Of a stretch of 64,000 nt of DNA, positions 40,821-60,501 are shown in pieces. Both the position numbers and the translations under genes were made by a program. The notes beneath the pieces are model-generated. The model saw only the letters and a program-made list of their open reading frames with translations, was not told the DNA's origin and made no database searches. Position 1 is the first letter of the stretch, and each line of letters opens with the position of its first letter. The DNA is from a virus (lineage: Duplodnaviria > Heunggongvirae > Uroviricota > Caudoviricetes), in the IMG/VR virus record IMGVR_UViG_3300006153_000006. One strand, 5' to 3'.

Positions 40821-41312
40821 TCATTCACTCCTGAGCGGAACAAGGATCTTTCTAAACCCAAGCGTTACCCTTGTTTTATGGTTAAGCAGCGGATAAATCT
40901 CAACATCGTCTGCATACTGGGAAGCTCGCAGGAACCACTGCTTGTGGCAAAAATCAATATCGGCGGCTTCCATTTCTATAAACCCAATATCCGGAGCAAG
41001 ATCATCTCTTTTGCAAACAAAATTCAGGCTTTCTTCCTCGACTCTGATCCCGTTCTTCACAATGGCAGATGCAATGCTGATACGCCTTACAGCTTCTGGG
41101 TTGAGAATATACACCTCATTCCTCGGCAAGGACTTCATCTGTTCAATCAGCGCATCGACTTCAGCAAAGTCCTCGTCGTCAAACTCTTCCTTATCGTATT
41201 CAAAATCCTGCAAACTTGTCACCTCTTTCCGTTGTTCTGCTCCCTGATTATAGCATTGTTGATGGAAAAATGAAAGATTAAAATTCCCCGTTGTAAAGAT
41301 TGGCGCGGACAT
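40821..41312 (-). CDS. Hypothetical protein (start uncertain)
   Basis: ORF overlaps the upstream gene end; an internal start is likely. Confidence 0.25.
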   Translation of the reverse strand: MSAPIFTTGNFNLSFFHQQCYNQGAEQRKEVTSLQDFEYDKEEFDDEDFAEVDALIEQMKSLPRNEVYILNPEAVRRISIASAIVKNGIRVEEESLNFVCKRDDLAPDIGFIEMEAADIDFCHKQWFLRASQYADDVEIYPLLNHKTRVTLGFRKILVPLRSE

Positions 41313-42783
41313 TTTTCAGCGAGTAGAGCTTGGTAAAGTTTCCATCTTTGAACACCGTGATGAGTTCGTTCCCGCTCTGTGCCTGCTGCCATGTAAGGCC
41401 GTCCTCGTAGGCGTAGCCCGTATCCGTCTTGAACACCCGGCAACAGCCGCGCTGCGACTTCTTGAAGTGCCCGGAGTCTGTCTTGGGGTTCTTGAAGATC
41501 ATGATGGGCTTACCATCTTTATCTTCCGCATAGGTCGCCTTGACGGCGATACCAAAGGTGTCGCGGGTATAGGGGCGATAAGTCGGGCGGATCTTACCGG
41601 TGTCCCAGTCCTCCTCAAAGTCCTCCAGACACTCCATGGAGAAAGAACCCACGCCAAGAGCGACATTGCTGACGGCGAACCCGTTGTTTTCCAGAATCTG
41701 ATAGATACGCTGGCAGCGCTGAGGCGTAATACTGTCGCCGTAGAGAGCCTTGACGTGGGGGTTCAGCACCTTAAATCCCTTGGCATTTACACTGCCGCCA
41801 AAGATGTCCCACAGCTTGAACACGGTTTTGGTGACCACATCCACCGGGTCACCGCTGTCTCCACGGATCGAAATACAGCCTTCGTGGGCCAGGATCTCGT
41901 CTTTGAGCTGTGGAAGAATATTCTCCACCAGGTTCCAGTAATCATAGCTGTCACTGACCACCGAGAAGCTCTTGTGCGGGTAGATCTCCGTCAACAAGCG
42001 GCGCATGTGCGTCACCTCATCGCTGTCAATGGCGAAGTTGGAACACATCACGCTGTGCTCCGTGGACAAGGCGCCGTACGCCACAGGCTCTTCATCGGCG
42101 CGGCACGCATAGTTCTTTTCCAGCCAGAGAATGGCCGGAACAGTCGCCGTGTTCAGGAAACTCAGGCAGAAGGCCGCCGAGCTCTTTGTGGCGCTTTCTA
42201 CGCTCTCCTGTCCGCGCATAGAAAAATCGCCAAGGAGCCTCGCCGGAACAACATCGTCATCACAAGTGCGCTTCGCATACTCGTTGACGATCTTCCGATA
42301 GCGATAGCCAACCTCGGCGGATACCTGTGTGTGCCACATGGAGCAAGAAAGCATCGTTTCAATGCTGTTCACCAACCACACGAAGTCAGGATGTGTGTTG
42401 GATATCTCGATTTGCGGAACATGAATGTCCGTCCGTACGCCCTCCGGGACAGCCCGGATCTCCAACGGCAAATAGCCCAGATCGTGCAGGCCTTTCAGTC
42501 TGTCGTGGCCAACACCGTCTGTTCCGATGGTAGCTCCGAGAACCCTCGTGTACTCATCCCAGACCTGATCGAACGGAACGCCAAAGAAATACTCGTTAAA
42601 CGCTTCAATGAGGTACTCATTGATAAAAGCCTGAAGACCAAACAGCGTGACCTTATCGACATCTTCAAGCCTCGACATTCTCGGCGTATAATAGGAGGCC
42701 ATCTTGGTCAGGCCGACTGGGTATTGCTCGGCATGTGCTGTCTTATAAAAGTCCAAGCAAAGCAACGGATTGTAACGGATCAT
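41278..42783 (-). CDS. Nicotinamide phosphoribosyltransferase-family enzyme (NadV/Namat-like)
   Basis: LDFYKTAHAEQYP, LPLEIRAVPEG, VVSDSYD and IRGDSGDPVD correspond closely to NAMPT signature segments. Confidence 0.85.
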   Translation of the reverse strand: MIRYNPLLCLDFYKTAHAEQYPVGLTKMASYYTPRMSRLEDVDKVTLFGLQAFINEYLIEAFNEYFFGVPFDQVWDEYTRVLGATIGTDGVGHDRLKGLHDLGYLPLEIRAVPEGVRTDIHVPQIEISNTHPDFVWLVNSIETMLSCSMWHTQVSAEVGYRYRKIVNEYAKRTCDDDVVPARLLGDFSMRGQESVESATKSSAAFCLSFLNTATVPAILWLEKNYACRADEEPVAYGALSTEHSVMCSNFAIDSDEVTHMRRLLTEIYPHKSFSVVSDSYDYWNLVENILPQLKDEILAHEGCISIRGDSGDPVDVVTKTVFKLWDIFGGSVNAKGFKVLNPHVKALYGDSITPQRCQRIYQILENNGFAVSNVALGVGSFSMECLEDFEEDWDTGKIRPTYRPYTRDTFGIAVKATYAEDKDGKPIMIFKNPKTDSGHFKKSQRGCCRVFKTDTGYAYEDGLTWQQAQSGNELITVFKDGNFTKLYSLKNVRANLYNGEF

Positions 42784-42784
42784 A

Positions 42785-42985
42785 TTAAAGCCTCCCATTC
42801 AACTTCTTTGCGAGATAAACAGCGAACGCAAACGGGGAAAGAGCGGGCCATAAAACGCCGACAAAAATGTAATCACCTACATCCACATACTCCGGGTACG
42901 TCCGGTTTTTCAGGTTCAAATAGTACAGCGTGAATGTGATAACAGCGCCTATGACAACATACAGGAAGACATACAGCAATATCAT
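42785..42985 (-). CDS. Small membrane protein
   Basis: 66 aa with two hydrophobic helices. Confidence 0.3.
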   Translation of the reverse strand: MILLYVFLYVVIGAVITFTLYYLNLKNRTYPEYVDVGDYIFVGVLWPALSPFAFAVYLAKKLNGRL

Positions 42986-42988
42986 ATA

Positions 42989-43804
42989 TTAACACCGATC
43001 CTTTCCGAGGACGATTATTTTCTCGTGATTGCCCCGATAAATACTATCGGTTGTGAAGACCTTTTCAATTAAACCGGACTCTATAATCTCACCATCGAAA
43101 ATTGTATTCTCGCAGTGGGTCACATAGAGGTAAACCTCCCCGGCCCCCGCTTCCTTGAGAGCATTCGCGGTGTGCATAAACGTTCCGCCACGAGAGCAGA
43201 TGTCGTCCACAATCAAAACAGTTTTCCCGTTCACGATCTCGGCATTGGTCAAGGATAAGCCCTGTATCTTACCAGTCCTCCAATCCCGATGCTTGATACC
43301 AAACACATAGGGGCGGCCCTGAAGCTGCTCGGAATACTTCTTTGTCGCACCTTCATCCGGATAGCAAAGTACAGTTTCATGATCGCCAATCCATGAGAGC
43401 ACGCGAATCACGTTGTCCATAACGCCCCGCACCTCGACCCTGTCAATGAGCGCCGTTGCGACATTGGAGTGCGGGTCTGTCACAATGACCTTGTCAAAGC
43501 CAAGCGTATTGATGAACTCTGCAAACCATTTGAGTGTGAAAATTTCATCCTCATTTTTCACGCGATCCATTCTTGCGTTGGGGATATACGGAAGCTCAAG
43601 AGAAATCCCGATATGGGGGATGCGGCTCCGAATATGATGAACGATGTGCCACAGAACCATACACTCATGATCTCCATCGTATTTCCACAGAATGGAAACT
43701 CCATCCTGACTACGTAGCTCTATGTGGGCGGTGCTTACACGAGCAGACAGCGTATAGTCCGGAAAATGCTTCTGTTCAACGTTCTGGCCGTCAATATAAA
43801 TCAT
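42989..43804 (-). CDS. Ribose-phosphate pyrophosphokinase-like enzyme (Prs/Adps-like)
   Basis: PRPP-binding loop VLIVDDICSRGGT and an N-terminal Prs-like half; shorter than cellular Prs (271 aa). Confidence 0.8.
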   Translation of the reverse strand: MIYIDGQNVEQKHFPDYTLSARVSTAHIELRSQDGVSILWKYDGDHECMVLWHIVHHIRSRIPHIGISLELPYIPNARMDRVKNEDEIFTLKWFAEFINTLGFDKVIVTDPHSNVATALIDRVEVRGVMDNVIRVLSWIGDHETVLCYPDEGATKKYSEQLQGRPYVFGIKHRDWRTGKIQGLSLTNAEIVNGKTVLIVDDICSRGGTFMHTANALKEAGAGEVYLYVTHCENTIFDGEIIESGLIEKVFTTDSIYRGNHEKIIVLGKDRC

Positions 43805-44165
43805 GCTACCCCTCCTATCCCAAACAGGTCAAACATTTCACTGTCGCTGGAACATTCTATTTCGGATGTATCCCCAAGGTAAATGACCCTTTTATATTCG
43901 TCATATTGCCGTCCATCGTAGTCAGACTTGTAGCCTCTTTTCATCAGAACGGAGCTACCAGATGTATAGAGACGAACACAGTCCATATCCCCCATGCTAT
44001 CTTCGCTCGCCGATGCTCCTGTCACCCATCGAACGCCGAGCAAATCTATATGCCGAAGAAACTCTGGCCTCAGCTGTTTCTCTGGAACCCAAACAATCAC
44101 ACTGACACAGTCTCCTTGCACCATGCTGTCAGAAAATTCTTCCTCCCACATAGAGCGACCCCCAA
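43801..44165 (-). CDS. Hypothetical protein
   Basis: ORF; the longer annotated start overlaps the downstream gene. Confidence 0.25.
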
Positions 44166-44717
44166 TCATTCGTTTTCGATACTGATCTGGCACATCTTCA
44201 TGGCGGCAAGAGCGTTCCGATGGCTCTCCGGCGTCACGCCTGCACAGCATGAGGCATCAACCGAGATCGGAATTTCCGGAAAGAATGCCTTGATGAGTAA
44301 AGCGTTGGAGATAACGCAGATATCCGTACACAGACCGACCAGCGTAATGGAATCAATGCCATTCTCATCGCTGATTGCATTCAAAATGTCTGGGAGATCC
44401 CGACTGCCAAACGTTTCCTTATATAAAGTAACCGAGCGCTGGATATGGCTATCATCTTTTTGGGCAGCGACTGCATCAGCCACCTCTTCCCGAAGCTTCC
44501 ACCCGTCCGTTCCGTAAATGCAGTGCGGAACCGGAAGATTTTTCCCTTCGAGAGTGTTGAGATAACCTTCTTCGTGGGTATCCATCGTGCAGATGATACC
44601 GCCGTCCCATCCCTGGATCTTGGAAACCGCATTGTCAACGATCTCCTGCGCTTCTTTGGTGCCAAGAGAACCGTCGATAAAGTCGTTCTGCATATCTACT
44701 ACCACAAGGATCTTCAT
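44166..44717 (-). CDS. Isochorismatase-family hydrolase (nicotinamidase PncA-like)
   Basis: MKILVVVDMQNDF start, catalytic Cys context (LVGLCTDICV), 183 aa. Confidence 0.75.
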   Translation of the reverse strand: MKILVVVDMQNDFIDGSLGTKEAQEIVDNAVSKIQGWDGGIICTMDTHEEGYLNTLEGKNLPVPHCIYGTDGWKLREEVADAVAAQKDDSHIQRSVTLYKETFGSRDLPDILNAISDENGIDSITLVGLCTDICVISNALLIKAFFPEIPISVDASCCAGVTPESHRNALAAMKMCQISIENE

Positions 44718-44968
44718 TTCTTTTGTCCTCCGTTATTTTGCTTTTTTCAATGTTGTCTGTATGCGGTGGCCTTGTCTTGGGTCGAGGCCAAGCATATACC
44801 GGAAGTGCCACCTCGTGCGTCTGGCTTGACTAAAATATGCCCTGCATATTTTAGTTCAAGGCACTCGCACGAGGTGCAGCACCCCACTTGATACTTCTAC
44901 CATCGGTAAGAAGCTGTCGCCGTATGTATCAGGAACAATCAGCAACAAATCTACACAACATCGGGGGC
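44718..44968 (-). repeat. Structured intergenic element (a), divergent member of the family around the RT gene
   Basis: Shares the hairpin motif CTTCT(T)ACCATCGGT(A/G)AGAAG and the flanking TACTTCT with elements at 46697, 48184 and 49441; also contains a roughly 36-bp near-perfect hairpin at 44775-44850. Confidence 0.4.
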
Positions 44969-45466
44969 TTAACCCGCTTTACACAGGTTTACAAAACCCT
45001 CATTCATTTCCCGGGCATTATCTTTTATCTGAGCCATTCGCTGTGCCGTCTGCTCAAAGCAGGCCTTTGCCACATCGTCCATGGAAACGTCGTCTTCAAT
45101 TTCAAAGTCATCGTCGTCCTCGTAGTCTTCTTCGATGTCCTCATCCTCTTCGTCATCGTCCCATACTCCCTCGCTGTCTGCCCAATCAAGAACATCGTTC
45201 TTATAATCCTCAAAATCATTGTCCACGCCATCGTAATCAAAGCTGCTGTGGCGGATATAAAAGTCATATCCTGTTGGGATACTACCGAGCCAATCGCGAA
45301 TATCTCTCCAGGAATCATACCCAACGGCGTCACGTATGTCTTCGTCTATCATACCGTCACGTTCATCGTCATCGTAGATATCTTCGCACACATCGCACCC
45401 GTTCTCGTTGCAAAAGCTAACCAGGTCATAGAAATCATTGACGGTGTCGATAAATTCACGTCTTGT
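44969..45466 (-). CDS. Highly acidic protein (possible DNA-mimic/anti-restriction-like)
   Basis: About 166 aa dominated by D/E runs; RBS GAGGAGG before the internal Met. Confidence 0.35.
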   Translation of the reverse strand, partial: TRREFIDTVNDFYDLVSFCNENGCDVCEDIYDDDERDGMIDEDIRDAVGYDSWRDIRDWLGSIPTGYDFYIRHSSFDYDGVDNDFEDYKNDVLDWADSEGVWDDDEEDEDIEEDYEDDDDFEIEDDVSMDDVAKACFEQTAQRMAQIKDNAREMNEGFVNLCKAG

Positions 45467-45667
45467 CATTTCTGACGCCTCCTCAAAAATAATATAATAT
45501 GGTTCCATATGCCGCTTTTGATGATCCTTACTCAGGATATCCGCCGGACAGTGCCGGAGTTGAACTGGCTTCACCAAAAGCATCAATCATCTAATGCTTA
45601 CCACCCAGGCGGAGCGACAAATGGCAATGCGAAGAAAGGAGATGTAGGACGGAGCCGTATCCGTCCT

Positions 45668-45742
45668 TGGAGCTGGTAGTAGGACTCGAACCCACGACAC
45701 TCGACTTACAAAACCGATGTTCTACCACTGAACTATACCAGC
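45668..45742 (-). tRNA. tRNA-Thr (anticodon UGU), CCA encoded
   Basis: Cloverleaf: GCTGGTA acceptor, GTTC/GAAC D-stem, anticodon loop TTTGTAA, T-loop TTCGAGT, 3' CCA. A perfect 8-bp hairpin follows. Confidence 0.75.
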
Positions 45743-45879
45743 GTAAATGGTGCCACGACACATCATGACACCAAGCTCTACGTCCGCAAAACACCGTGTG
45801 CACCCGGCTGGTTTCTCCTCCTTTGGCCCTCGGAGATCAACCCAAGTACCTGTCGGAAAAAGCATAACCAATAGAGCAA

Positions 45880-45955
45880 TGGAGCTGGAGACGGGACTTG
45901 AACCTGTGACAAGACGCTTACGAAGCGCCCGCTCTACCGACTGAGCTACTCCAGC
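45880..45955 (-). tRNA. tRNA-Thr (anticodon CGU), CCA encoded
   Basis: GCTGGAG acceptor, GCTC/GAGC D-stem, anticodon loop TTCGTAA, T-loop TTCAAGT. Confidence 0.75.
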
Positions 45956-45998
45956 AAGGATAGCCAGTCTTTCCCGGCTGCCAGGCATAGCCTGCTTG

Positions 45999-46679
45999 TT
46001 AAAGCAGAGGAACCACCTTATTGTACAAAGCAACAAACTGCTCGTTTATTTGCCTATCAATATGATAATGACCAAAAAACCATCGCTTGAATGTAAGATC
46101 TTGCCTGACTCTTTCGTGAAAGCTCACGATCGGGTCGTTTTCGTACCATTCCGCGATAAACTGTTGTACACTTCTTGGCGCACAATGTGTAATGACATAG
46201 TCTACTTCCCAGTTGACGGCTTCGAGAGCTTGCACGGCGCGTTCCATCTCGTCATTGGACGGGATCTCCTGCGGCCACCACGAGATATGTTCTCTCCGCT
46301 GTGCCTTATCCACAGAGCGTGCACCACCCATCACGTAGATCTTCTTCCCGCCGATCGTTAAGACCTGTCCGCGCTCCAAATGATAGATGCTTTCGGTCAC
46401 CTGACGGACATAGCCGCCGAACATGGGAATGAGTTTCAACTCGCGAAGAATATCGAAGTTCTCGTGGTTACCGTCCACAAATAACGTGGTAAAGGGCTTG
46501 TTTGCCAGCCAATCCTGCCAGTACATTTCCCTTGCGGAACCATACCAGACCAGGCCGAAGTCGCCAGCGATTATTACATAGTCGCTTTTGCTCAACTCTT
46601 TCTGCTGTGGAAAATTCCTCGTATTCAGCTTGGAGATATCATAATCGGCGTGCGTATCGCCAGTTACATAGACCATACC
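45999..46679 (-). CDS. Calcineurin-like metallophosphoesterase
   Basis: VYVTGDTHADYD, GDFG, DGNHE and FGHYH motifs; the annotated 90-aa N-terminal extension is probably not translated. Confidence 0.7.
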   Translation of the reverse strand, partial: GMVYVTGDTHADYDISKLNTRNFPQQKELSKSDYVIIAGDFGLVWYGSAREMYWQDWLANKPFTTLFVDGNHENFDILRELKLIPMFGGYVRQVTESIYHLERGQVLTIGGKKIYVMGGARSVDKAQRREHISWWPQEIPSNDEMERAVQALEAVNWEVDYVITHCAPRSVQQFIAEWYENDPIVSFHERVRQDLTFKRWFFGHYHIDRQINEQFVALYNKVVPLL

Positions 46680-46696
46680 TTTTACTCCTTCAAAAA

Positions 46697-46986
46697 AATG
46701 TGATCTCATAGAGAATAATAGACATCTGGAGACGGAGTCTACGGCGTCTTGGATGTGTGGGAGCCGAGTCATGTCGGCGAACTGGTGTGCCATCCTGTTC
46801 TGATTTTGGTGCGAGATGTCTCGATTCTGGGGGTTTGCTGCGATCGGCATCGCGTATTTCCGTCGCCAATGACTCAGCGTTCGAGCTGGCGTGTTTGCGC
46901 AGCCTCCTGCTGCCCCGTCTTTCATCCAGCTATTTGTTACTTCTACCATCGGTGAGAAGCACCGCGAACGGTTATACATCACATTT
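46697..46986 (-). ncRNA. Structured intergenic element (b) with 9-bp terminal inverted repeats
   Basis: AAATGTGAT ... ATCACATTT termini. The 3' 55 bp is near-identical to element (d), and the central hairpin motif is shared with (a) and (c). Confidence 0.45.
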
Positions 46987-46995
46987 GTTTTGTAA

Positions 46996-48183
46996 TTATC
47001 TCAGGTCTTCCCTAATGCACGCTATGATATCTACGCCATACTTTTTGCTTGCATGTTCGACGATCTTGTCTATCACATCCTTTTCCACCATCCGGTAGTA
47101 GTTGTAATAGCCATCGAGCGTTCTGATATCGCCCGCCTCCCATGGTGTACCGTTTTTCCGGTCAAAGATGTAATTGTGGATCATATTCTGGAACTGCTGC
47201 TTCCGCCGGTACCCTATGGTAATATTGTTGTCCTTGTTGAGCATGACACCGAGGTTCCAGTTCCGCCCAGCAGAAGACCCATACCGTGTCTTTTTGACGT
47301 TCAATGAGAACGGCGCATGATACTCTTCCAGCGTCCTCAGCAACAGGTCTTGTACCTGCCAGATGTCGAATGCGTACCTGGATGAGATGATGAAATCGTC
47401 CGCATACCTGGTATATATCATCCTCTGCTTCAGCGGGGTCTCCTCGCCGTCAGCGCCGGTCAGAACACCGGCACGCTCAAACTCCATATACCTCAGCCTT
47501 TTGTTCAGGTTAAAGTCGATGGGGATCATCATGATGTTTGTAATCGTCGGGGACACCGGGGTGCCTTGAGGCAGACCCCCATTCAGAGTTGCAAGTTCAA
47601 GTGCCTTCTCAAGCTCAGCACGCCCTTCCTCTGTCCTAACGACCTCGCTGAACGGGAACACCATGCTGAACTGCTGCATCATAAACTCCAAAGTTGTGCT
47701 GCCAAAGAAATCATGGAGGTCAAACTTCCCAAACCAGCGGCTCTCGTTCTGCTGGTGACGCTTTACCGCATCAATGGTACAACGGCCCTTAATGTATGCA
47801 AACGCGGAGGTATGATAAAGGGCGTGAAAGTCCTCCTCAAAAATCAGCTTGAGCTGACGGAGCGCGTTCATCAATTCCGGCAGAGGCTCATCTATTTTGC
47901 GCAGACCACCGGACTTCTTTGGGATATGGAATGTATGGTACAAATCACTCCTCTTGGACTCTCTGAGCTTTTCAGTACCTGCATTGAACTCCTTCAGCTT
48001 TCTAACCAAGTAGCCAATATTGAGGCCATTTGTAAAGCGTTCGCTCACTTCCTCAACGGCATACGTTTTTGTGTTTCCTACACTTGTGTTATACGGTGCA
48101 TAATCAGAAAAGCTTTGCGAGATAAACTCTTCAAAAGTCATCTGATGATACATCGGAGATTGATGGACTGTAATGTACACCAC
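46996..48183 (-). CDS. Reverse transcriptase (retron/unknown-group type; QGxxxSP and YADD)
   Basis: RT motifs FHIPKKSGGLRKIDEP (1/2), GKFDLHDFFGST (A), LPQGTPVSP (4) and YTRYADDFII (C); GTG start with GGAGG RBS. Confidence 0.85.
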   Translation of the reverse strand: MVYITVHQSPMYHQMTFEEFISQSFSDYAPYNTSVGNTKTYAVEEVSERFTNGLNIGYLVRKLKEFNAGTEKLRESKRSDLYHTFHIPKKSGGLRKIDEPLPELMNALRQLKLIFEEDFHALYHTSAFAYIKGRCTIDAVKRHQQNESRWFGKFDLHDFFGSTTLEFMMQQFSMVFPFSEVVRTEEGRAELEKALELATLNGGLPQGTPVSPTITNIMMIPIDFNLNKRLRYMEFERAGVLTGADGEETPLKQRMIYTRYADDFIISSRYAFDIWQVQDLLLRTLEEYHAPFSLNVKKTRYGSSAGRNWNLGVMLNKDNNITIGYRRKQQFQNMIHNYIFDRKNGTPWEAGDIRTLDGYYNYYRMVEKDVIDKIVEHASKKYGVDIIACIREDLR

Positions 48184-48516
48184 TTTCGTTTCCTCCTTCC
48201 TTTTTTAGTTGCCTGTAACCAAAATAGAGGCTGCTGCCTGGTGCTTTGGATCTATCTTTATGGTTTGGCTGCAAGTGTCATCTGAGCTACGTCATCTGAC
48301 ATGTGGTCTGGCATTCGATTCATTGCGGCTGTATTGTTTGCTGGTGTCCTGTCGGGTTTCTGGTGTTTCGTGACATTGAGATTCTTTATTACTCAAGCTT
48401 GAAGACGTCAAGTAGCTCCTTGTGCGCCTCTTTCTTTTCCTGGCTATTTGTTACTTCTGTCTTCGACGAGAAGCTCGTTTTTTCAAAACGACATTTCGTT
48501 ACAGGTTTTTGCGCAC
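48184..48516 (-). ncRNA. Structured non-coding element (c) immediately upstream of the RT gene, with 8-bp flanking inverted repeats
   Basis: CCTGTAAC / GTTACAGG repeats at 48205 and 48500 in an a1/a2-like arrangement; contains the UCGUUUU/AAAACGA hairpin and the shared GCUUCUC ... GAAGUAACAAAUAGC motif. Confidence 0.45.
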
Positions 48517-49422
48517 TTATGGCTGCGCCATACCAAAGAATGCAAACATCTCTTCTGTGGTGCTCGGTCTCATTTCTTTAACACCCTTTGGCAAAATCCT
48601 ATATTCCTTATCCCCGATCTGCTCGACTCTCGATTTCGGGTTAAGAGATACCAAAGGACGTACGCCACGGAACTCACTTGCCATTGCGGAACCCAGATAA
48701 CTGGACTTGTCAACGGTAGCGTTTGAACCACGGAATCGCTTGCCCATATCTGCAAGGAAATAACTCAGGTAGTATCTGTCTCCATCTGCCATTCTCGTTG
48801 TACCCAAAAGCTTTTTGGCAAGGTCTTGCGTCGGGTGCGCCCGAACGCCCCGCCGCTTCTTGAACAGATTGAGCCTGTCATTATCTCCATACATATCCTT
48901 AACGGTCGGGATACGAACTAACGACGTGAATTCACCCGTATCAAGCTTTGTGGTTTTCTCCAAGAGCGCCGCTATCTCATAGCTGTCAAAGTACCGTAAA
49001 AATCCTGCGTGCTGAGACTGATCGCTCATTGACGGTAAATACTGACGCGCCGGGGGCGCGTCATACTTATGCTGCGGACTATACCATCCATCCTTTGCGC
49101 TGTTCAGATATTGCAGCAAAGTCGATACCTCAAAGTGCGGATTTCCACGGCGCAAGACTCTGTTTTCCCCGCTGCCATCATACTCATAGCCGCTCCCGAT
49201 CTCATACCAGCCATCAGGCCGATAGTCACCTGGCCACTCTTCTGTTGCATCGAGAACGCAGATGTCCACTACGCCCTCGGAAATAAAATCGCAGTTTGGA
49301 GTTGCCTTCAGCCATCTGAGCGGCGCCGGGGTGGCATCACCACCAAAGGCTGTGTACTGACCAAAGACCAATACATCTCCGAGGCTCATGCTTCTTAATG
49401 TACGACTCATTCTTTTTTTCAC
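48517..49422 (-). CDS. Hypothetical protein
   Basis: 301 aa ORF between elements (d) and (c); no family recognised. Confidence 0.35.
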   Translation of the reverse strand: MKKRMSRTLRSMSLGDVLVFGQYTAFGGDATPAPLRWLKATPNCDFISEGVVDICVLDATEEWPGDYRPDGWYEIGSGYEYDGSGENRVLRRGNPHFEVSTLLQYLNSAKDGWYSPQHKYDAPPARQYLPSMSDQSQHAGFLRYFDSYEIAALLEKTTKLDTGEFTSLVRIPTVKDMYGDNDRLNLFKKRRGVRAHPTQDLAKKLLGTTRMADGDRYYLSYFLADMGKRFRGSNATVDKSSYLGSAMASEFRGVRPLVSLNPKSRVEQIGDKEYRILPKGVKEMRPSTTEEMFAFFGMAQP

Positions 49423-49440
49423 CTCCAGTTTCCCAAATTC

Positions 49441-49714
49441 CTATGTGATCTCATATAGATTCTGACTCATCCGTACAGGATCCGGAAGATTTTCCTTCAG
49501 TGGGCGGAGGAGGCGTTCGGCGCCAGATGCTTTGGGTGGCTCCCCTGAATCGGACACTCTTCTGGGTGTGGTTCGCTTCTTGAGCGCACCTGACCAGCAG
49601 CGTCTCTTGCCGGCGAGCTCAGGTGCACTGGGCTGCCTGGTGTCTTCTTTCTCTCAGCTATTTGTTACTTCTACCATCGGTGAGAAGCACCGCGAACGGT
49701 TATACATCACATAG
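49441..49714 (-). ncRNA. Structured intergenic element (d) with 9-bp terminal inverted repeats
   Basis: CTATGTGAT ... ATCACATAG termini, covarying with element (b); 55-bp 3' identity to (b). Confidence 0.45.
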
Positions 49715-49719
49715 TTTAA

Positions 49720-50397
49720 TTAAAACGCATCCAACATAAAGTTGAATGCGTCAATGAGTACGAGCTTTTTAATTGGCTTTCCATTCCAAAAATTCATGAA
49801 ATTTGCCACACCAAGAGCACATACCATCCGAACAGTCGGACAGACAGAAAGTGTGATGCGGCAAGCGGACATCGGTGTTTCTTCTTCCGCCTCTTCATGA
49901 GAGAACTCCATGGACGCCAGAAAATCTTTCTTCATCTTGTAGTCAGACCAATCGGCTGCGTAATGCTGCGCATCCTCCAGCCTTGTGCGGAAATCAAACA
50001 TCGCTTTGACATATTGGTTGTCCATGTGCTTCTCCACAATGGCCCGACGAAGTTCGATATTATCCACACACAAGAACACAAACCCGGAAAGCTGCTGACC
50101 ATCCCAACCCTTGCTCTCCAGCTTAATATCGTCCTCGGCATCCGGGTTGATCTCCAGGATCATATCTCTGACAGCCTCCACTTTTGGCCGCCCGACATCT
50201 TTCTGGCGAAACATCTGATTTGCCAAATTCTTGGGTTCGACAACATCAAAATCCCAAAGCACAAACTTTGTCAGACCGTTTCTTGCCAGCATTTCCGCGA
50301 CGGTCGAGCCGACAGACCCACAACCTACGATGTGGATCTTGGCGGGATGCTTCTCCGGCTGAAAAACATCATAGCTTTTTGACAAGTCCATTTCCAT
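49720..50397 (-). CDS. ThiF/MoeB-family E1-like adenylyltransferase
   Basis: IHIVGCGSVGSTVAEMLARNG Rossmann motif, 225 aa. Confidence 0.7.
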   Translation of the reverse strand: MEMDLSKSYDVFQPEKHPAKIHIVGCGSVGSTVAEMLARNGLTKFVLWDFDVVEPKNLANQMFRQKDVGRPKVEAVRDMILEINPDAEDDIKLESKGWDGQQLSGFVFLCVDNIELRRAIVEKHMDNQYVKAMFDFRTRLEDAQHYAADWSDYKMKKDFLASMEFSHEEAEEETPMSACRITLSVCPTVRMVCALGVANFMNFWNGKPIKKLVLIDAFNFMLDAF

Positions 50398-50405
50398 CCC
50401 TCCAA

Positions 50406-51290
50406 TTATTTGCGTCTATAGTATCCATACGGATCGTCGTCATCATCCATCGGAAGTGTGAGTTGAGTACCTCCTTCACCGGGCTTTTTCCAGCCATCCC
50501 CGATTTTGCTTTTCGGTTTGTCGTTCGCCCAGTTGGATGCTCCCTTCTCACCCTCGTCCTTCTTCTTGTCTGCGGCGGCTGGCGTCACAGGAGGGCGATA
50601 CGGTTCGTAGCTACTGCCGGCACCGTTATAGGTCGGGGTTGTGTAGGATTTCTCCACAACAAGGCTCTTGGCCTCCTTTATGAACTCCTCAAAGCTGACG
50701 ACGCCGCCTTCGAGCCTAACTTCGACATCCCCATCCTCAAACAGCGTGTTCTTGCGCATATCGTAGATCTTGATGAAGCTTTTGAAGCTCTTGTTATAGA
50801 TCATGAAGATGTAGAAATCATCCGGCCCAAGCTGGGCGACGATTTCTTCCTGATGATTGAGATCCACAGAAGAAGGAGAAACGGGCATATTCACATGAGA
50901 ATGGCCCTGCATGTGGATGTTATAGAAACGTTCATCCTCGTCATTCTCCATGATCCATCTGGCATACTTCTCCGTGTCCATTTCAACCGTAGTCGCAGCG
51001 ACAGTCTGCGGGTAGACAAGAATATCCGAGATGATGTACTCGTCTGCTTCCTCGTTGTCGATACGAGCAGCAACGCCATGCCACGCAACCTCCTTGTTGA
51101 ACTCTTGAAGGAGCATGACCATTTTGCACCATGCCTCTGGCGTAAAATATACGGTTGCCTTCTTGTGCGCAGACTCAAATGTCTTGCTGAAGTTGAACTT
51201 GCCATCGGTCAGCGGCCCCATGGCCAACGACTTCTCGAAATCTTTTTTGCACTCCTCGATCATTTCAGGAGTCATGTTCAAAATTTTGCT
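50406..51290 (-). CDS. JAB/MPN (JAMM) metalloprotease-domain protein
   Basis: HMQGHSHVNMPVSPSSVD matches HxHx7Sx2D; low-complexity basic C-terminus. Confidence 0.6.
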   Translation of the reverse strand, partial: SKILNMTPEMIEECKKDFEKSLAMGPLTDGKFNFSKTFESAHKKATVYFTPEAWCKMVMLLQEFNKEVAWHGVAARIDNEEADEYIISDILVYPQTVAATTVEMDTEKYARWIMENDEDERFYNIHMQGHSHVNMPVSPSSVDLNHQEEIVAQLGPDDFYIFMIYNKSFKSFIKIYDMRKNTLFEDGDVEVRLEGGVVSFEEFIKEAKSLVVEKSYTTPTYNGAGSSYEPYRPPVTPAAADKKKDEGEKGASNWANDKPKSKIGDGWKKPGEGGTQLTLPMDDDDDPYGYYRRK

Positions 51291-51297
51291 CATGTAA

Positions 51298-52791
51298 TTA
51301 TGCCTCCTCTTCCTGTGCTTGTGTCTCCCCATCCTGACCTGTCGCCTCCTGACTCTCAATCCACTCAATAGCGGCAAGTGGTTTCACAACTTTACCATCG
51401 GGAAGCTCGATGCACTGGGTTTGATTGCGATACATATCGTTCATGAACTCTCCGATGACGACCGAGTCTCCGAAATTGAGACTTTTTGAGGAAGAAACGC
51501 ACTGCTCGATCGCTCCAATATAATTCCTGTCACGCAGGAACTGATTGATGACCCTTTCATGATTTCCAAGACAAGCGTGATACTGAATATGCGGGTTTGG
51601 CATCATGTTCTTCATTTCAAGCGGGAACTCATGCTGTCTTATACCACGAACGCTGCCATTCAAATCGAAAGTATATCCGGCACAGAACCTAAGACGAAGC
51701 GTTCTGTCGCTGAAGACCGCTTTGATGAGCTTCGCCATCCTCTCGCCGCTTATGGCACCATGCGCCCGAGTGTAGATGTAGCTGTGATTATTGCGAAGCA
51801 TACTTTCGACCATTTCTTCATCGAAATACTCGCAATATCCAAATGCAGCGAACTGCATCATAGAGTCTGAGACAGTCTCCAAATAGAGCGAGGCATTACA
51901 CAGAAAATAGTCCATGATTTCAGACTCATCCCCGCCGGATGCAATCTTCTGATGAAGCCCAAGAAGTTTGATGGACAATTCGTTACGCTGCGAGAGGATA
52001 CTTGCAATCGAGTTATTCATCCTCTCAAACTCTGCTTCCTTTGAGGCAATTTGCTGTTCAACTCTCTGTGCCTCGATACGCTCAAACCGGGTCTCAAACC
52101 CTTTGAGGAGCTTTTCGATACGCATTTTCTTGAAGTCATACCGCTCTGCAAGCTTTTTGAGACACGCCATATACTTGTCCGGATCCTTCTCGGTAAGAGA
52201 CAAAAACAGCGCCAGCTCGTCCTCGGTCAGCTTGTCCGTATCTTTCCCGGCATTAAAATACCATGGCATACACGGCACGATAGCGCGCTGAAGATAATGG
52301 AGCTTGCGGATGTCAAGCGCCTCGACGAACAGAACAACAGACCGAAGCTCGACATTGATGAAACACACCACTCGGAATGACTTTCTGAAATATGCAGTTA
52401 CAGGCTCCAAATTGTGGAACCCATCATACATACTCGGGAAAGTGCTCTCAATGGCATCGAAGCTGATGTTATTACCGTCAGCTCCTCCGTTGATGTTGTG
52501 AATAAAGAATGTGCCTGCACTGTCAGAATAAATCTCCCTTGCTACAGCAGACACCACATCACGCTTAGATGCACCCGACAGATTTTCAGCCCGATAGGAA
52601 CTCTGGCTAAACCTTAACTCCACAGTATCTTCTTCTCCCATGCGCTGTGGAAGGATTGCACGGAGCGTGGAAAGAAACGAATTATCTCCGTTGTATGACA
52701 CACCAAAGACGTTTCTGAAGTAGTCATTGGCAAAATCAGTACAAAACGGAGTCTCTCGGACGATTGCCCTAAACATATCTTGACACCCCAC
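51298..52791 (-). CDS. Hypothetical protein (497 aa, central coiled coil)
   Basis: ORF only. Confidence 0.35.
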   Translation of the reverse strand: MGCQDMFRAIVRETPFCTDFANDYFRNVFGVSYNGDNSFLSTLRAILPQRMGEEDTVELRFSQSSYRAENLSGASKRDVVSAVAREIYSDSAGTFFIHNINGGADGNNISFDAIESTFPSMYDGFHNLEPVTAYFRKSFRVVCFINVELRSVVLFVEALDIRKLHYLQRAIVPCMPWYFNAGKDTDKLTEDELALFLSLTEKDPDKYMACLKKLAERYDFKKMRIEKLLKGFETRFERIEAQRVEQQIASKEAEFERMNNSIASILSQRNELSIKLLGLHQKIASGGDESEIMDYFLCNASLYLETVSDSMMQFAAFGYCEYFDEEMVESMLRNNHSYIYTRAHGAISGERMAKLIKAVFSDRTLRLRFCAGYTFDLNGSVRGIRQHEFPLEMKNMMPNPHIQYHACLGNHERVINQFLRDRNYIGAIEQCVSSSKSLNFGDSVVIGEFMNDMYRNQTQCIELPDGKVVKPLAAIEWIESQEATGQDGETQAQEEEA

Positions 52792-53740: not shown

Positions 53741-53809
53741 ATTTTTCCTCATATTGTTTGCTGTTTTTTTCGTACCACTTTTCGTGGTACGGATTTATTC
53801 GATTAGGGA

Positions 53810-54469
53810 TTAGAATGCGAAAGCGGGGGCCAGCCCAAAGGAAAGACTCGCATAGTTGTAGTAGGCGCCGCCGTCGGTGTACACAAAGCAGAAGTAGCTG
53901 CTGCCGTTGCAAAAAGGGGAACGCAACAGCAGATATTCTCTGTCGCCTCTTCTCACTTTGTAGTACGGCACATCCTCCTGCCGGTAATATTCATACCAAT
54001 GTCCCTCGCCAGGAGCTGAGTAGATGCACCTGCCGAACAGCTCTTTCTCGGACTTGATAAAAAATCTATCCTCGGTTTCTATCAGCTCATTGCTGCCATC
54101 AAAAGTGTTTGCGGTCAACTTTAGAACGGGAACCGCCACGTCGATGATCTCGTCCGGCATGAGTTCAAATATGCTTTCGCCTGGCTCATTCATCATCCTG
54201 CGCAGCTTGGTCGCTGCCCAAGACCCCTCATTTGTGTCTGCATCATTCCATGGATAACGCTGTGGCATACAATCAACCATTTCCCACGTCAGAGGTAGAA
54301 TAAGCCCGTCTTTAGTTCTGTCGTGATTTCTCCCAATAATTCTAAACTCGACTGGGGTTCCGTCTTTCAGAACGGCACTTTTTGTATCGCCAACATTGAA
54401 CATGGAGGCTGCCGCAGGGCCAAAACCCCTTATCGTCCTCCATGAATACTCCTCCAAGGCTCTTGGCAT
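53810..54469 (-). CDS. Paralog A of a putative receptor/ligand-binding protein with a DGR-like variable C-terminus
   Basis: 219 aa; homologous along its length to the 59627 gene. The last 35 aa lie between the conserved LLRSP and GLAPA flanks and differ only at codon positions 1 and 2. A GC-rich GGGCTGGCCCCCGC stretch and a hairpin follow. Confidence 0.5.
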   Translation of the reverse strand: MPRALEEYSWRTIRGFGPAAASMFNVGDTKSAVLKDGTPVEFRIIGRNHDRTKDGLILPLTWEMVDCMPQRYPWNDADTNEGSWAATKLRRMMNEPGESIFELMPDEIIDVAVPVLKLTANTFDGSNELIETEDRFFIKSEKELFGRCIYSAPGEGHWYEYYRQEDVPYYKVRRGDREYLLLRSPFCNGSSYFCFVYTDGGAYYNYASLSFGLAPAFAF

Positions 54470-55163: not shown

Positions 55164-55240
55164 TGGTCTGAGTGGAGGGACTCGAACCCTCGGCCTCGTG
55201 ACCCCAAATCACGCCGTCTACCAACTGACATTACACCCAG
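55164..55240 (-). tRNA. tRNA-Pro (anticodon UGG), CCA encoded
   Basis: Acceptor CTGGGTG/CACTCAG, anticodon loop TTTGGGG, T-loop TTCGAGT. Confidence 0.7.
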
Positions 55241-55243
55241 ATT

Positions 55244-55334
55244 TGGCGGCGGAGGTGGGATTTGAACCCACGGGCGGGATTCCCACCAGCGGTTTTCAAG
55301 ACCACCGCATTCAGCCAGACTCTGCCACTCCGCC
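55244..55334 (-). tRNA. tRNA-Ser (anticodon UGA), type II with long variable arm, CCA encoded
   Basis: Acceptor GGCGGAG/CTCCGCC, anticodon loop CTTGAAA, variable arm TGGGAATCCCGCC, T-loop TTCAAAT. Confidence 0.7.
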
Positions 55335-55344
55335 GTTTTTATCG

Positions 55345-55857
55345 TTATTGCTTTTGAATGCCAAACAGAGACATCATATCTTCATCTGTCGATACTTCAA
55401 AGTCTTTTGCATAACCGGAAAACATTTCGTCTGTCCAGTTTGAGGGAGACCCATCTATGTGATATTTCCCGTATTCTGTTATTTCCTTAATTGTTACAGC
55501 GCTACCAGCAAAGCGCATCATTTCTTCAATCACGGAATCGGTGATTGGATTTACGCCAAACATCATATAATCTTTCCCTAAGCGTAAATCTTCTCTTACA
55601 AAAACCATATCTCCTGGAACATACTGCGTCTGGATTGCAAAACCAACAAACATTTCACCGGGCCATATATATTCATACGCATCAGTTTCCGCAACGGTAT
55701 ACAGGTCATTGCCAAGAGCTGCGGTGATTTGGACTATGCAACCGGCAAGAGCCGCCATTCGCTCTGGCACATAGTAATCCCTGTAATATTCGCCCTCTTG
55801 GATATCACCTTTGACCACAACAAAGTCGCCCTTGTTATATTTTATAGCAGACAGCAT
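55345..55857 (-). CDS. Hypothetical protein
   Basis: 170 aa ORF with a long structured 5' region. Confidence 0.3.
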   Translation of the reverse strand: MLSAIKYNKGDFVVVKGDIQEGEYYRDYYVPERMAALAGCIVQITAALGNDLYTVAETDAYEYIWPGEMFVGFAIQTQYVPGDMVFVREDLRLGKDYMMFGVNPITDSVIEEMMRFAGSAVTIKEITEYGKYHIDGSPSNWTDEMFSGYAKDFEVSTDEDMMSLFGIQKQ

Positions 55858-56111
55858 ACCAACACCCCTCTATGCGTCAATATAATGGGGTTGCCGGTTT
55901 ACCACCCTCCACCGGCAGGATGCACGCATTCGACTCATATCACCCGTTGTACCTCCGGGGATATGGCCGAAACCCCACATCAAGCAGCATTTCTTGACTA
56001 ACCCATCCGACTTTCGGCTTTTGTTCGACTGGTGGGCTGCCAGCCTAACCGCACCATTTCCCCGACATCTGTGGGGCGGTTACGGTTACCCCTGCGACTT
56101 GCTCGCAGGGC

Positions 56112-56187
56112 TGGTGGAGACAATCGGACTCGAACCGACGACCCTCTGCTTGCAAAGCAGATGCTCTCCCAACTGAGCTATGTCCCC
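56112..56187 (-). tRNA. tRNA-Ala (anticodon UGC), CCA encoded
   Basis: GGGGACA acceptor with G3-U70, GCTC/GAGC D-stem, anticodon loop TTTGCAA, T-loop TTCGAGT. Confidence 0.8.
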
Positions 56188-56633
56188 ATGAATGGGGCGG
56201 GACAACGCCCGCCCCTATATAAATCAATCCGCTACCACCCAGCCTGGTGGTTATCCCCACGGTCACATACTCACCCGACAAACCATTCTCTCCAGGGTTT
56301 TGTAAAGCGTTTTTAATTTTTCTTTGAGCGCCACTGCGCTGAACTTTACACCCTTATAAGCGTTGAGGGCTGAATGTTAATCCTTGATCGTTAAGTCGTA
56401 AGCTTTACAGCTCATTGTAACCGCACACATTGCGGTTTCATCTTGATTTGATACAAGATATTTCAAAACTTTTACATACCCAAAATGTAGGTTTTGAAGT
56501 AGGAGTTGAACCTACTAACGGCTTATCAAGCCAATACCAAGGAGCGCCTTTTCTTTTTTACTTTACTTATCTGTAATGGCGCAAAAACAGAGAAGGAATA
56601 TGATTTGGGGTTTTCGGGTGGCAGCGAAATTGA

Positions 56634-56891
56634 TTACTCAGAAATCAGAACCACATCAGACGAGTGGCACAGGTACGTCTTCCCGTTAATCGTCACCTGG
56701 ATCTGGTCGCCGTCCTCATAATCCTTCCACGAAGTGACCTCACCCCGCAGAATAGACCCGTCAGGAAGACTGATGATGGCGCTCTTGAAGGTAAACGTGG
56801 TGTCAATGAGTTGATAGTTTCCGCAAGACGCCAGCATCATCATAATGGCGGCAAGAGCCGCCATTATACCTACGATTCTCTTTTTCACCAT
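56634..56891 (-). CDS. Small lipoprotein
   Basis: Signal peptide ending in a lipobox-like LASC. Confidence 0.45.
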   Translation of the reverse strand: MVKKRIVGIMAALAAIMMMLASCGNYQLIDTTFTFKSAIISLPDGSILRGEVTSWKDYEDGDQIQVTINGKTYLCHSSDVVLISE

Positions 56892-56900
56892 ATCACCGCC

Positions 56901-57542
56901 TTAATACTCGACAGAAATCTCGGTCATGGCGTTGGACACGGAAAGGGTGGAGTCCACATCAACCATGAAGGCGGAAATCTCGGCCTCCAAAGCCTCAATC
57001 TTTTCCGCGACCTTGAGAGGATCCACCAACTCCACGGTCTGGGCGGCGACAAAGTCGGCCCGAACCCTCTTGACGTCATCAGAAGCGTTCTTCATGTCGG
57101 TGTTGCCATAAAGGGACTTGATGTACTCGTCTGCCCGGTGTTCCAGCTCATCGCCGTTTGCCTTGTCGGCAGACTGCTTGGCCTTTGCATAGGAATTACG
57201 GAGCTCAGCGAGAAGCAGCTTCTTCAGCTCCATACCGTGGTTCTTCATCTCGATGGCCTCCGCCACAGTGTACTCCTTGCCAGCGATCGTCACCTTGGTG
57301 GTCGCGTTAGACAGAACCACCGCCCGCTTGATGGCATCACGGCGGCGAATGAGGTCAACGACCTTGTCGTAGCCAGCCTCCATGTTCTTACAGAACTCCG
57401 CAACAGAAACGCCAGAAATCTTCTGGTTAGAGTGCTTGTTGGCTGTGATGAAGGTAGTCTCGTCGATGGCACCATATACACGAGAATCCAGCGTCTTTAA
57501 CTCGCTCAGAGCCTTATGCACGTTCATGGTTTCTTTGGTCAT
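56901..57542 (-). CDS. Hypothetical coiled-coil protein (possible scaffold-like)
   Basis: ORF only; helical and charged. Confidence 0.3.
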   Translation of the reverse strand: MTKETMNVHKALSELKTLDSRVYGAIDETTFITANKHSNQKISGVSVAEFCKNMEAGYDKVVDLIRRRDAIKRAVVLSNATTKVTIAGKEYTVAEAIEMKNHGMELKKLLLAELRNSYAKAKQSADKANGDELEHRADEYIKSLYGNTDMKNASDDVKRVRADFVAAQTVELVDPLKVAEKIEALEAEISAFMVDVDSTLSVSNAMTEISVEY

Positions 57543-57682
57543 GGTAATCTTTTCTCCTTTATCTTTGAAATTTATTTCAGCTCTTAATGAGCTGCGGTCG
57601 ATAACATTTGCAAACCAAAACCCTCGGCTAACAGTTTGCCTGACGCTCCCAATTCACTTCGTCGTGCGTCGTTTCCCTATGT

Positions 57683-57779
57683 TGGTGCTCAAGCAGGGAC
57701 TCGAACCCCAAACCTTACGCTAATCTGGCGCTAATACCGAGTATAGATCGGCTGCTCTACCGATTGAGCTACTTGAGCA
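57683..57779 (-). tRNA. Atypical tRNA-like gene (94-nt body, internal 7-nt direct duplication, anticodon loop UCUAUAC)
   Basis: Perfect 7-bp acceptor GCTCAAG/CTTGAGC plus CCA, canonical D-arm and T-loop TTCGAGT. The variable region is 26 nt and contains a CGCTAAT direct repeat. The anticodon would be UAU if the loop is read conventionally. Confidence 0.5.
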
Positions 57780-57895
57780 TCTATGCCGCACTCTCGGTGT
57801 AGCTGTCTGCCGAAAATTGAAACTCGCCATTCAGATATACCTCAAAATGACCCCTGACCGCTTTTACTTCATATCCATCCGGCATATCCGGCACC

Positions 57896-58612: not shown

Positions 58613-58652
58613 AATCTTACCCCCCTACCGAAGTGCTGTTTTATAAAGAATG

Positions 58653-58885
58653 TGCGGGTGAGGATTTGCACCTCACATGATGTGGATTATACCTGGCAGA
58701 CCCTCTGCGCACTGAGCTACTCCGCCCTGTCCCCCTTGCGGGAGCGCCGAGTGGGACTCGAACCCATGTCCACATCTATCTGGACTGCATCTTAGCGTTT
58801 ACTGTTGCGTGGGCTTCGATTACGAAACAACACGCTTTACTACTTGTCCAACATTCCTGCTGGAAGTATCTATTCCGCCACCGCA
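58653..58885 (-). ncRNA. tRNA-like structured ncRNA, copy B
   Basis: 233-nt unit with the same 5' 17 nt and 3' 26 nt as copy A and a different core. The core has a D-arm-like GUAGCUCAGUG and a second T-loop-like GGGUUCGAGUCCC. Confidence 0.4.
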
Positions 58886-59173
58886 CGAATTAACTGTGAC
58901 ATGGCTTTTGGAAGCCATCAAGAGCAAATGATGGAATGAGCCGCTCTTTGCCATCACTACAAGCACAAACTGCAATGCCAGGATCTTCAGTCCAACGCTT
59001 AAACTCTGCGGTATAGCTCGCATACCCGCTGGTCATTTTCCCGGAAAACCCGTTATACACGAAGTTTTTGACTCGCATCAAACTCACATCCATTCGTTTA
59101 TTTTTTTGCAGCACGCAAACCCCCTGAACGTACTGCTGCCGACTGCCCTTTTGTTTCCAGTCGGCTCCCCTCT

Positions 59174-59583: not shown

Positions 59584-59626
59584 ATGTTCCCGCCCCGTTT
59601 GGGGCGGGGATTTTTTTGATTTTAGA

Positions 59627-60500: not shown

Positions 60501-60501
60501 A

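Follow-up and report, generated by a model that had tools for sequence, protein, structure and literature searches.

A retron-type reverse transcriptase accompanied by a family of structured intercistronic elements in a large, probably temperate phage of gut Clostridia

Retrons have, to our knowledge, been described as units of one reverse transcriptase (RT), one non-coding RNA (ncRNA) plus an effector, and mostly as bacterial defence systems. The 64,000-nucleotide (64-kb) stretch of the viral record IMGVR_UViG_3300006153_000006 (Caudoviricetes) that we analyzed, hereafter the window, carries on its minus strand the gene of a retron-type RT of 395 amino acids (46996-48183) together with four structured elements, named a to d, all of them on the RT strand and in intercistronic spacers. 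On balance we favour the view that the four elements are cognate ncRNAs of this one RT and form a natural retron array. Their plan matches the layout of an msr-msd unit, and element c occupies the canonical msr-msd position directly upstream of the RT gene, so the best reading is that they are primer-templates of the RT, a single enzyme that would make several RT-DNAs. A preliminary description of the window had proposed such an RT with several cognate structured RNAs in the arrangement of msr-msd units and their a1/a2 repeats. The proposal is supported by the class to which the RT belongs, by the lock of the elements to its strand and position in three fetches of relatives, and by the covariation of the element helices.

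The four elements share one plan. The two ends of the RNA are joined by a terminal stem, which is 8-9 bp long in the four elements of the window and 8-16 bp overall. The 5' arm of this stem is followed by an unpaired G and then by N-A-U/G, by a short hairpin of variable sequence, hp1, present in 32/32 elements, and by a second hairpin, hp2, in which stems of 5 and 3 bp are separated by a single bulged pyrimidine and topped by a loop of 3 nt. Next comes a tail, UAACAAAUAGC (UAACAAnUUG), which together with hp1 and hp2 makes up a conserved, msr-like module of ~65 nt. The remainder is a fast-evolving variable segment of about 120-290 nt (120-235 nt in the four copies of the window), and the 3' end of the element, directly before the 3' arm, reads (U)AUGnAG or GCAG, so that a G precedes the arm. 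In the minimum-free-energy folds the terminal stem is closed in all four elements.

Element b (46696-46986) lies after the stop codon of the RT gene and before the ribosome-binding site (RBS) of a metallophosphatase gene and, the true start of the latter being 46676, fills the gap between the two. Its terminal repeats, AAATGTGAT/ATCACATTT, are at 46978-46986 and 46696-46704, with the G at 46977 and hp2 at 46940-46959; the 5' arm can be extended to 46992 with a bulge, and in the orthologue from locus L015 the stem reaches 15-16 bp. Element d (49441-49714), between an E1/ThiF gene and the gene of a 301-aa protein (p301), has repeats CTATGTGAT/ATCACATAG at 49706-49714 and 49441-49449, its G at 49705 and hp2 at 49668-49687. 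For element c (48212-48505) the corresponding features are CCTGTAAC/GTTACAGG at 48498-48505 and 48212-48219, G 48497 and hp2 48454-48473. Element a (44748-44963), upstream of a nicotinamidase gene, is closed by the stem CGATGTTGT/ACAACATTG, also written CGAUGUUGU/ACAACAUUG, with arms at 44955-44963 and 44748-44756 and the G at 44954; it has a long hairpin 1, an hp2 at 44894-44913 and a long msd-like hairpin at 44809-44876 (~29 bp, fold z = -6.6).

Most of what the preliminary description had said of these elements holds. The terminal inverted repeats of b, c and d are found where it had placed them, the arms of b and d differing from each other and yet staying complementary, and the near-identity of b and d, given as about 55 bp, extends over 67 nt at their 5' ends (96% identical). 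Each copy does follow a stop codon, starting 5-11 nt past it, and precedes the next gene, ending 11-45 nt ahead of its start codon. The sites were right; two corrections are that the elements read in the sense of the minus strand, and that the metallophosphatase gene starts at 46676. Element a had been taken for a looser relative that shares the 20-nt hairpin and carries a 36-bp hairpin; it is a member of the family and does have the 20-nt hairpin (the hp2 given above), but its own terminal stem had been overlooked and the long hairpin measures ~29 bp.

A 27-nt motif of the elements has three occurrences at ≤3 mismatches against 0 expected. A loose structural descriptor (any 7-bp arm plus any hairpin) produced thousands of chance matches and was replaced by a covariance model, R1, made of hp2 and its flanks, built from alignment A2 and run over the whole window with filters off. 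In the 64 kb it found only the four elements, d at 48 bits, b at 47.9, c at 44.9 and a at 34.8, all within 3 kb of the RT; the next match scored 10.6 bits. On the sense strand within the elements we found no sigma-70 promoter or intrinsic terminator, the counts being at or below chance. This, together with the tight spacing between genes, indicates that the elements are probably part of the operon mRNA.

Both helices, the terminal stem and hp2, covary strongly, and the structure is under selection. Among 21 hand-collected hp2 sequences, 99.4% of cells were paired, compared with 35-48% in slid controls, and 7/8 pairs were changed on both sides. The result was the same in 73 distinct sequences from species genomes, none of which had been used in building the model (99.5% paired, 7/8 pairs with changes on both sides). 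For the terminal stem, mini-elements from 32 distinct copies, each composed of the 5' arm with the G and 3 nt, hp2 with the tail, and 8 nt with the 3' arm, were aligned without gaps. In this alignment G10, A12 and G55 are invariant, and 9/9 terminal-stem pairs have changed on both sides with 99% of cells paired. Taking the terminal stem and hp2 together, 16/17 pairs show changes in both partners, with a covariation score of 0.84 where shuffles give 0.26. G10 is the unpaired G observed at the end of the stem, and its place there makes it the putative priming nucleotide. Two caveats apply to these counts: some hp2 sequences were initially found via a pairing filter, and the arms were picked as the best complement within a wide search space. 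Two further results are free of both biases. Unguided RNAalifold on full-length orthologues recovered the terminal stem, hp1 and hp2, and on six a-type orthologues gave 45 pairs, 32 with compensatory changes, the long central hairpin included. Furthermore, the nucleotide before the 3' arm, which was not a selection criterion, is G in 55/68 elements of the independent set.

The association of the elements with the RT was followed in three mutually independent fetches of relatives, made with viral RT homologues, with an hp2 DNA pattern blind to the RT, and with RT homologues from species genomes. Viral contigs with RT relatives (58-62% identity) bear these elements on the RT strand: the RT gene is immediately preceded by one and immediately followed by one or two more, and an a-type element comes a few kb later. 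Among 2.9 million viral contigs the hp2 pattern picked out 53 stretches. Those confirmed by the model all have an RT on the same strand, adjacent to them or in an adjoining stretch of the same contig, with the exception of L033, which reaches the contig end before the RT position; eight stretches were without an RT, and none of these was confirmed by the model. The third fetch, by protein only, took RT relatives from 185,579 species genomes with a 6-kb flank on either side and gave 77 model matches, 77/77 of them on the RT strand. Here hp2 stands 245-351 nt before the RT start in 27 loci and 42-111 nt after the RT stop in 22 loci, and no match was found inside the RT. Nine control loci resembling classical retrons (RTs of 25-30% identity) were also searched, and no model match was found in them. 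At 37-39% RT identity the layout is kept with the hp2 sequence wholly replaced, as in MT835544.1 (CACUC-A-GGU-UAA-ACC-GAGUG) and in locus L090 (a 9-bp stem with a GUUC loop). The lock of the elements to the strand and position of the RT spans RT identities from 81% down to 37%, while other neighbours change.

The RT itself is readily recognized. Its GTG start aligns with the MVYIT start of its homologues and it contains LPQGTPVSP and YADD, which bears out the gene boundaries, the GTG start and the QGxxxSP and YADD motifs first reported for it. Every member of the family alignment (A6) keeps YADD, the motif A aspartate and LPQGTPxSP. Pfam assigns it to RVT_1 (3e-17). Its 25 top PADLOC matches are all retron RT models, RT_II-A being the best (2.7e-41), with a best score of 140 bits and scores spread across several retron types. 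Among NCBIfam models retron_St85_RT is the best (153 bits) and Drt2 reaches 24 bits; a comparison of the RT with retron and defence-associated RT (DRT) profiles had been suggested at the outset. The best sequence matches in the PDB are likewise all retron RTs (Ec83, Ec78, Ec67 and Ec86), with Ec83 and Ec78 foremost. The N-terminus carries a family-specific extension of ~75 aa, and classical retron RTs align only from residue 73-82 on. Judged by its sequence, the RT belongs to the retron clade of prokaryotic RTs; because it falls below the cut-offs of the named families and its best scores are spread over several types, it represents a separate lineage of retron-like RTs. The family is abundant: the protein collection contains 4372 related RTs at E≤1e-10, and one cluster was seen on at least 1000 contigs.

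In the variable segments conservation is lost. Between relatives whose RTs are 81% identical, the 5' module retains ~90% identity and the final ~20 nt are conserved, whereas the middle is close to random, and within the window elements b and d combine near-identical ends with unrelated middles. The middle of a-type elements (137-153 nt) forms a very stable hairpin (z -5.5 to -9.5) with covariation. That of b/c/d-type elements (205-290 nt; z about 0 to -2) is A/C-rich and U-poor, with 14-19% U in the copies of the window and 14-26% overall. No match to the variable regions was found in 50,697 phage records, and none longer than 14 nt elsewhere in the window, and an origin as captured or antisense sequence was rejected; the only candidate for a conserved motif within them is a lineage-restricted CCCAGAA island in b/d-type copies. 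The number of ncRNAs per RT ranges from two to five, and both number and places differ between phages. Element d, for instance, was not seen in the inspected gaps between ThiF and p301 of the close relatives L001, L013 and L016, and L001 has two tandem copies after the RT. In L090 (RT 37% identity) an entire element of ~390 nt occurs twice with its flanks, as identical direct repeats on either side of the RT (9650-10045 and 11398-11795). The hp2 apical loop is common to 57% of copy pairs within a genome, compared with 10% between genomes, as would be expected from a shared trans-acting reader or from frequent gene conversion.

If the elements are primer-templates, the operon would be transcribed as a single RNA and the hp1/hp2 module would be recognized by the RT, which would prime from the 2'-OH of the conserved G and copy the variable segment, beginning beside the 3' arm, into several different RT-DNAs; RNase H would then cleave the polycistronic RNA at the element sites. 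With templates placed within the operon mRNA, reverse transcription and RNase H would also cut that mRNA, and such RT-driven cleavage is possible and compatible with a template role. The layout to which we compare the elements is the general msr-msd layout given in PMC6868368. The use of several templates by one retron RT is made feasible by engineered arrays, in which one RT uses several tandem msr-msd units on one transcript (PMC10370050).

Several observations weigh against this reading. The conserved G stands in a (U/C)-G-N-A (xxG-N-A) context and not in the AGC of characterized retrons, where the context of the priming G is TAGC, CAGC, GAGC or ACGC (PMC6868368). The RT scores under the curated cut-off of every named retron family (153 vs 235 bits for retron_St85_RT, 83 vs 450 for Ec67), and in the alignment to the Ec83 RT the retron motifs NAxxH and VTG read AVKRH and NLG, the H of the former not being invariant within the family. 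The variable regions of b/c/d-type elements are without a long msd hairpin or any conserved structure and, at ~200-290 nt, exceed what is usual for a retron msd. The elements fit no Rfam family, either at the gathering score or at E≤10, and the locus holds no recognizable toxin-type effector and no known retron effector. Finally, single terminal stems of 8-9 bp are not significant one by one (60/1200 shuffles reach the observed score); the evidence for them lies in the conserved position of the stem and in its covariation across homologues.

The main alternative, which we regard as unlikely but take seriously, is that the elements act within the operon mRNA as cis-regulatory or processing modules to which the RT binds. 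Cleavage, stability or translation of the downstream cistron would then be controlled by the RT, or by a limited reverse transcription and RNase H, in the manner of the hybrid RNA of type VI retrons or of a maturase-like RNA-binding role, and free multicopy single-stranded DNA (msDNA) would not be the functional product. The placement of every element immediately upstream of an RBS and start codon, those of the RT gene included, would suit such modules, as would the lack of sense-strand promoters and terminators, by which the elements are probably parts of the mRNA, and the unconstrained sequence of the variable region; there is also a precedent for a retron template and a repressed open reading frame on one RNA (10.1101/2025.10.22.683967). 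The folding predictions do not bear out a general masking of the RBS, however: the mean probability that the Shine-Dalgarno sequence is unpaired is 0.48 for native sequences, 0.45 when the variable part is shuffled and 0.53 with the local sequence only. Sequestration of the RBS thus has no overall predicted effect, and is seen only for elements b and d of the window. Furthermore, the catalytic motifs of the polymerase are strictly conserved, and the G adjacent to the stem and the closed-stem geometry are features of priming that would be superfluous in a mere binding site.

We consider it improbable that the elements are non-autonomous retroelements, resembling short interspersed nuclear elements (SINEs) or miniature inverted-repeat transposable elements (MITEs), which the RT mobilizes into intergenic spacers. 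Mobility would account for the copy numbers and positions that differ between related phages (element d, L001, L090), for the near-identical ends and unrelated middles of b and d, and for the tight fit of the copies between stop codon and RBS. Against this, no copy is more than a few kb from the RT or on the opposite strand, none were found elsewhere in the 64-kb window or in RT-less contexts, the copies within a genome mostly differ in both arms and middle, and no target-site duplications were seen. Moreover, copies upstream and downstream of the RT keep their positions throughout the deep family, which argues for inheritance and not for repeated insertion. A dispersed repeat of the repetitive extragenic palindrome (REP) or MITE kind, with many copies in unrelated contexts and in either orientation, was rejected for similar reasons: the four copies are all near the RT and on its strand, the 77/77 matches in relatives are likewise same-strand, and RT-less loci contain none. 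The MITE-like repeat and the terminator or antiterminator structure that had been offered as alternatives in the preliminary description are both disfavoured.

Still less credible to us is the idea that the elements are structures independent of the RT, such as RNase processing sites, insulators or attenuators, which merely neighbour it. Structured intercistronic elements are indeed common in phage operons, but independence is hard to reconcile with a lock to the strand and position of the RT that persists from 81% to 37% RT identity despite changing neighbours, with an hp2 apical sequence that is shared within genomes and differs between them, or with the match in layout to retron templates. 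A fragmented group II intron, a diversity-generating retroelement (DGR) or a DRT2-like system of cDNA-encoded genes, superficially suggested by RNA structures on both sides of the RT gene and by U-poor variable regions that could in principle lack stop codons, is contradicted by direct tests and hardly worth entertaining, as the RT reaches 77 bits with the TIGR04416 maturase model, whose cut-off is 300, no match to an intron RNA family appears at E≤10 and each element is closed on itself, no pair of template and variable repeats exists (near the RT, only the 5' modules of the elements are repeated), and the variable regions have no consistent stop-free frame for the creation of a Neo-like gene, Drt2 scoring 24 bits against a cut-off of 390.

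The RT and its elements form part of a longer array of genes, all genes from ~41 to 53 kb of the window being on the minus strand. In the order of transcription these are p497, a JAB-like gene, the E1/ThiF-like gene, element d, p301, element c, the RT, element b and the metallophosphatase, followed by two tRNA-Thr genes, an acidic protein, element a, the nicotinamidase and Prs-like and NAMPT-like genes. The protein p497 (51298-52791) has no recognized family or fold: no match was found in Pfam, PHROGs, NCBIfam, PADLOC or PDB sequences, and its AlphaFold2 (AF2) model, with a pLDDT of 87, has no fold match. A homologue is recorded in Acutalibacter muris. The JAB/MPN-like protein (50406-51293; PADLOC JAB, 5e-5) probably starts at ~51293, where homology to its relatives sets in, and the E1-like adenylyltransferase of the ThiF family (49720-50397) is matched by Pfam ThiF (1e-23), PADLOC E1-E2 and NCBIfam. 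The p301 gene (48517-49422) between elements d and c is found in closer relatives only. The calcineurin-like metallophosphatase (45999-46676; Pfam Metallophos, 2.5e-11; phrog_1649) is absent in distant relatives.

The preliminary description had seen that the RT is surrounded by elements but had missed the conserved partner genes. The order p497, JAB, E1(ThiF), element and RT on one strand is found in 22/22 viral loci fetched via the ThiF gene and in ~50/57 genome loci, and this synteny holds to 37% RT identity (window, L012, L090, L091, L092-L148), while p301, the metallophosphatase and the genes for nicotinamide adenine dinucleotide (NAD+) salvage come and go among relatives. No RT-less relative was found; every ThiF relative found carries the RT. 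By its conserved gene order, then, the unit is one of four proteins (p497, JAB, E1 and RT) and RNAs. The conservation of the core formed by p497, JAB, E1, element, RT and element makes p497, JAB and E1 likely effector or regulatory partners of the RT. Domains of the E1 and JAB kinds are known from several anti-phage systems (PADLOC E1-E2 and JAB; NCBIfam 6A-MBL cap2_3). The module lies in an accessory region next to the genes of NAD+ salvage, which hints at a function in conflict between phage and host or between phages; this is speculative and at present a guess.

The NAD+ salvage cluster adjoining the RT module (41278-44717, minus strand) comprises NAMPT-like, Prs/phosphoribosyl-pyrophosphate (PRPP)-synthase-like and nicotinamidase genes, the last at 44166-44717 downstream of element a, and in L013 an NAD synthase is added. 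We take the cluster to resemble the phage NAD+ reconstitution pathways that counter NAD-depleting defences. The acidic protein of 166 aa (44969-45469, minus strand) has an extreme acidic run (DDDEEDEDIEEDYEDDDDFEIEDD) and is possibly a DNA mimic; it lies just upstream of element a, and directly upstream of an a-type element wherever such an element was found (window, L001/L006, L004 and L015).

Genes for an integrase, NrdD, a DNA polymerase and a DnaB-like helicase are found elsewhere in the window, as are a transfer-messenger RNA (tmRNA) and eight tRNAs. Relatives were found as IMG/VR viral contigs (60-130 kb) and as contigs within metagenome-assembled genomes (MAGs) of Clostridia. From these relatives and from the phage genes of the window, the source is a large phage of gut Clostridia, and probably a temperate one. 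A tyrosine-integrase-like gene at 2818-4083 (minus strand; phrog_1, 8e-65) likewise makes a temperate phage probable. Relatives also occur in MAGs of Clostridia, on contigs of up to several hundred kb, and in a single isolate assembly (Clostridiales Family XIII PM5-7, L142). A megablast search of GenBank phages gave no match to any phage. The tmRNA (59174-59583, minus strand) scores 115 bits, and the eight tRNA genes fall within 55164-60932, including a tRNA-Ile(UAU) at 57683-57778 that is unusually long (96 nt). Most of this region is bracketed by a diverged direct repeat of ~270 nt (53791-54057 and 59608-59877; 71-76% identity) whose copies are 5.8 kb apart. A RAGATH-16 RNA match is found at 63767-63837 on the minus strand (79 bits vs a gathering score of 65.6). 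Near the 5' end of the DNA polymerase reading-frame region, three overlapping copies of a 40-nt G+C-rich repeat occupy 12212-12305 at offsets of 36 and 18 nt, with 73% identity to the reference copy.

Compared with canonical retrons, among which the St85/Ec78/Ec83 group (type I-A) is nearest by RT sequence, the system has many features in common: an RT of the retron clade, an ncRNA directly upstream on the same strand, terminal inverted repeats that close the RNA, an unpaired G after the 5' arm that faces a G before the 3' arm, an msr-like part of two stem-loops, a hypervariable template part and, in a-type elements, a long msd-like hairpin. In Ec86 too, the priming G faces a single G before the 3' arm. 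The differences are equally clear. Here each RT is accompanied by 2-5 ncRNAs, which flank it on either side and recur further down the operon, set into the spacers between the cistrons of protein-coding operons; the conserved G has no AGC context, the NAxxH and VTG motifs are not retained, the variable parts are for the most part unstructured, with lengths of ~200-290 nt, and the carriers are phages of Clostridia. We know of no retron effector set that the partner set of p497, JAB and E1 would match.

Engineered retron arrays, or 'multitrons', resemble the system in having several msr-msd units on one transcript, each with its own template and all served by one RT, as we propose here, but they are synthetic, tandem and based on Eco1 (PMC10370050), whereas these elements are natural, dispersed between genes and evolutionarily conserved. 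The hybrid RNA of type VI retrons also places the template physically within an mRNA that carries an open reading frame, but with one template and a repressed toxin frame (10.1101/2025.10.22.683967); no consistent RBS sequestration is predicted for the elements studied here, and their downstream genes are diverse. The RNA motifs RT-1 to RT-19 (Weinberg et al. 2017, PMC5737381) are, like our elements, structured RNAs beside bacterial RT genes and have been proposed to be retron RNAs, but no Rfam model matches the elements even at E≤10, and that survey found no RT-associated motif on both sides of an RT gene. In the retron classification paper and a 2026 retron survey, several ncRNAs per RT are not mentioned, and the survey names phages only as targets of retron defence. 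In the searchable literature, which is incomplete in coverage, we found neither a retron that has several natural ncRNAs nor an association of RT, E1 and JAB described. A retron-like system of this kind, phage-borne and with new partner genes and a natural array of templates, thus looks to be undescribed.

Taken further, and with rather less confidence than we place in the array itself, the system may represent a new, abundant retron type of gut-Clostridia phages, in which one RT makes several RT-DNAs from 2-5 templates dispersed in operon spacers and acts with a ubiquitin-like-system pair (the E1 adenylyltransferase and the JAB protease) and a ~500-aa protein, possibly as a phage weapon or in superinfection exclusion. 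Since the RT family is so common, experimental material should be easy to find. If the array is real, it would be the natural counterpart of the engineered ones, and its compact, naturally multiplexed RT-template modules from Gram-positive gut phages could serve genome-editing tools. A template array conserved in the operon spacers of phages would widen our view of what retrons are and where they act, and would raise the testable question of what several RT-DNAs, or RT-driven cuts in the mRNA, do for the phage.

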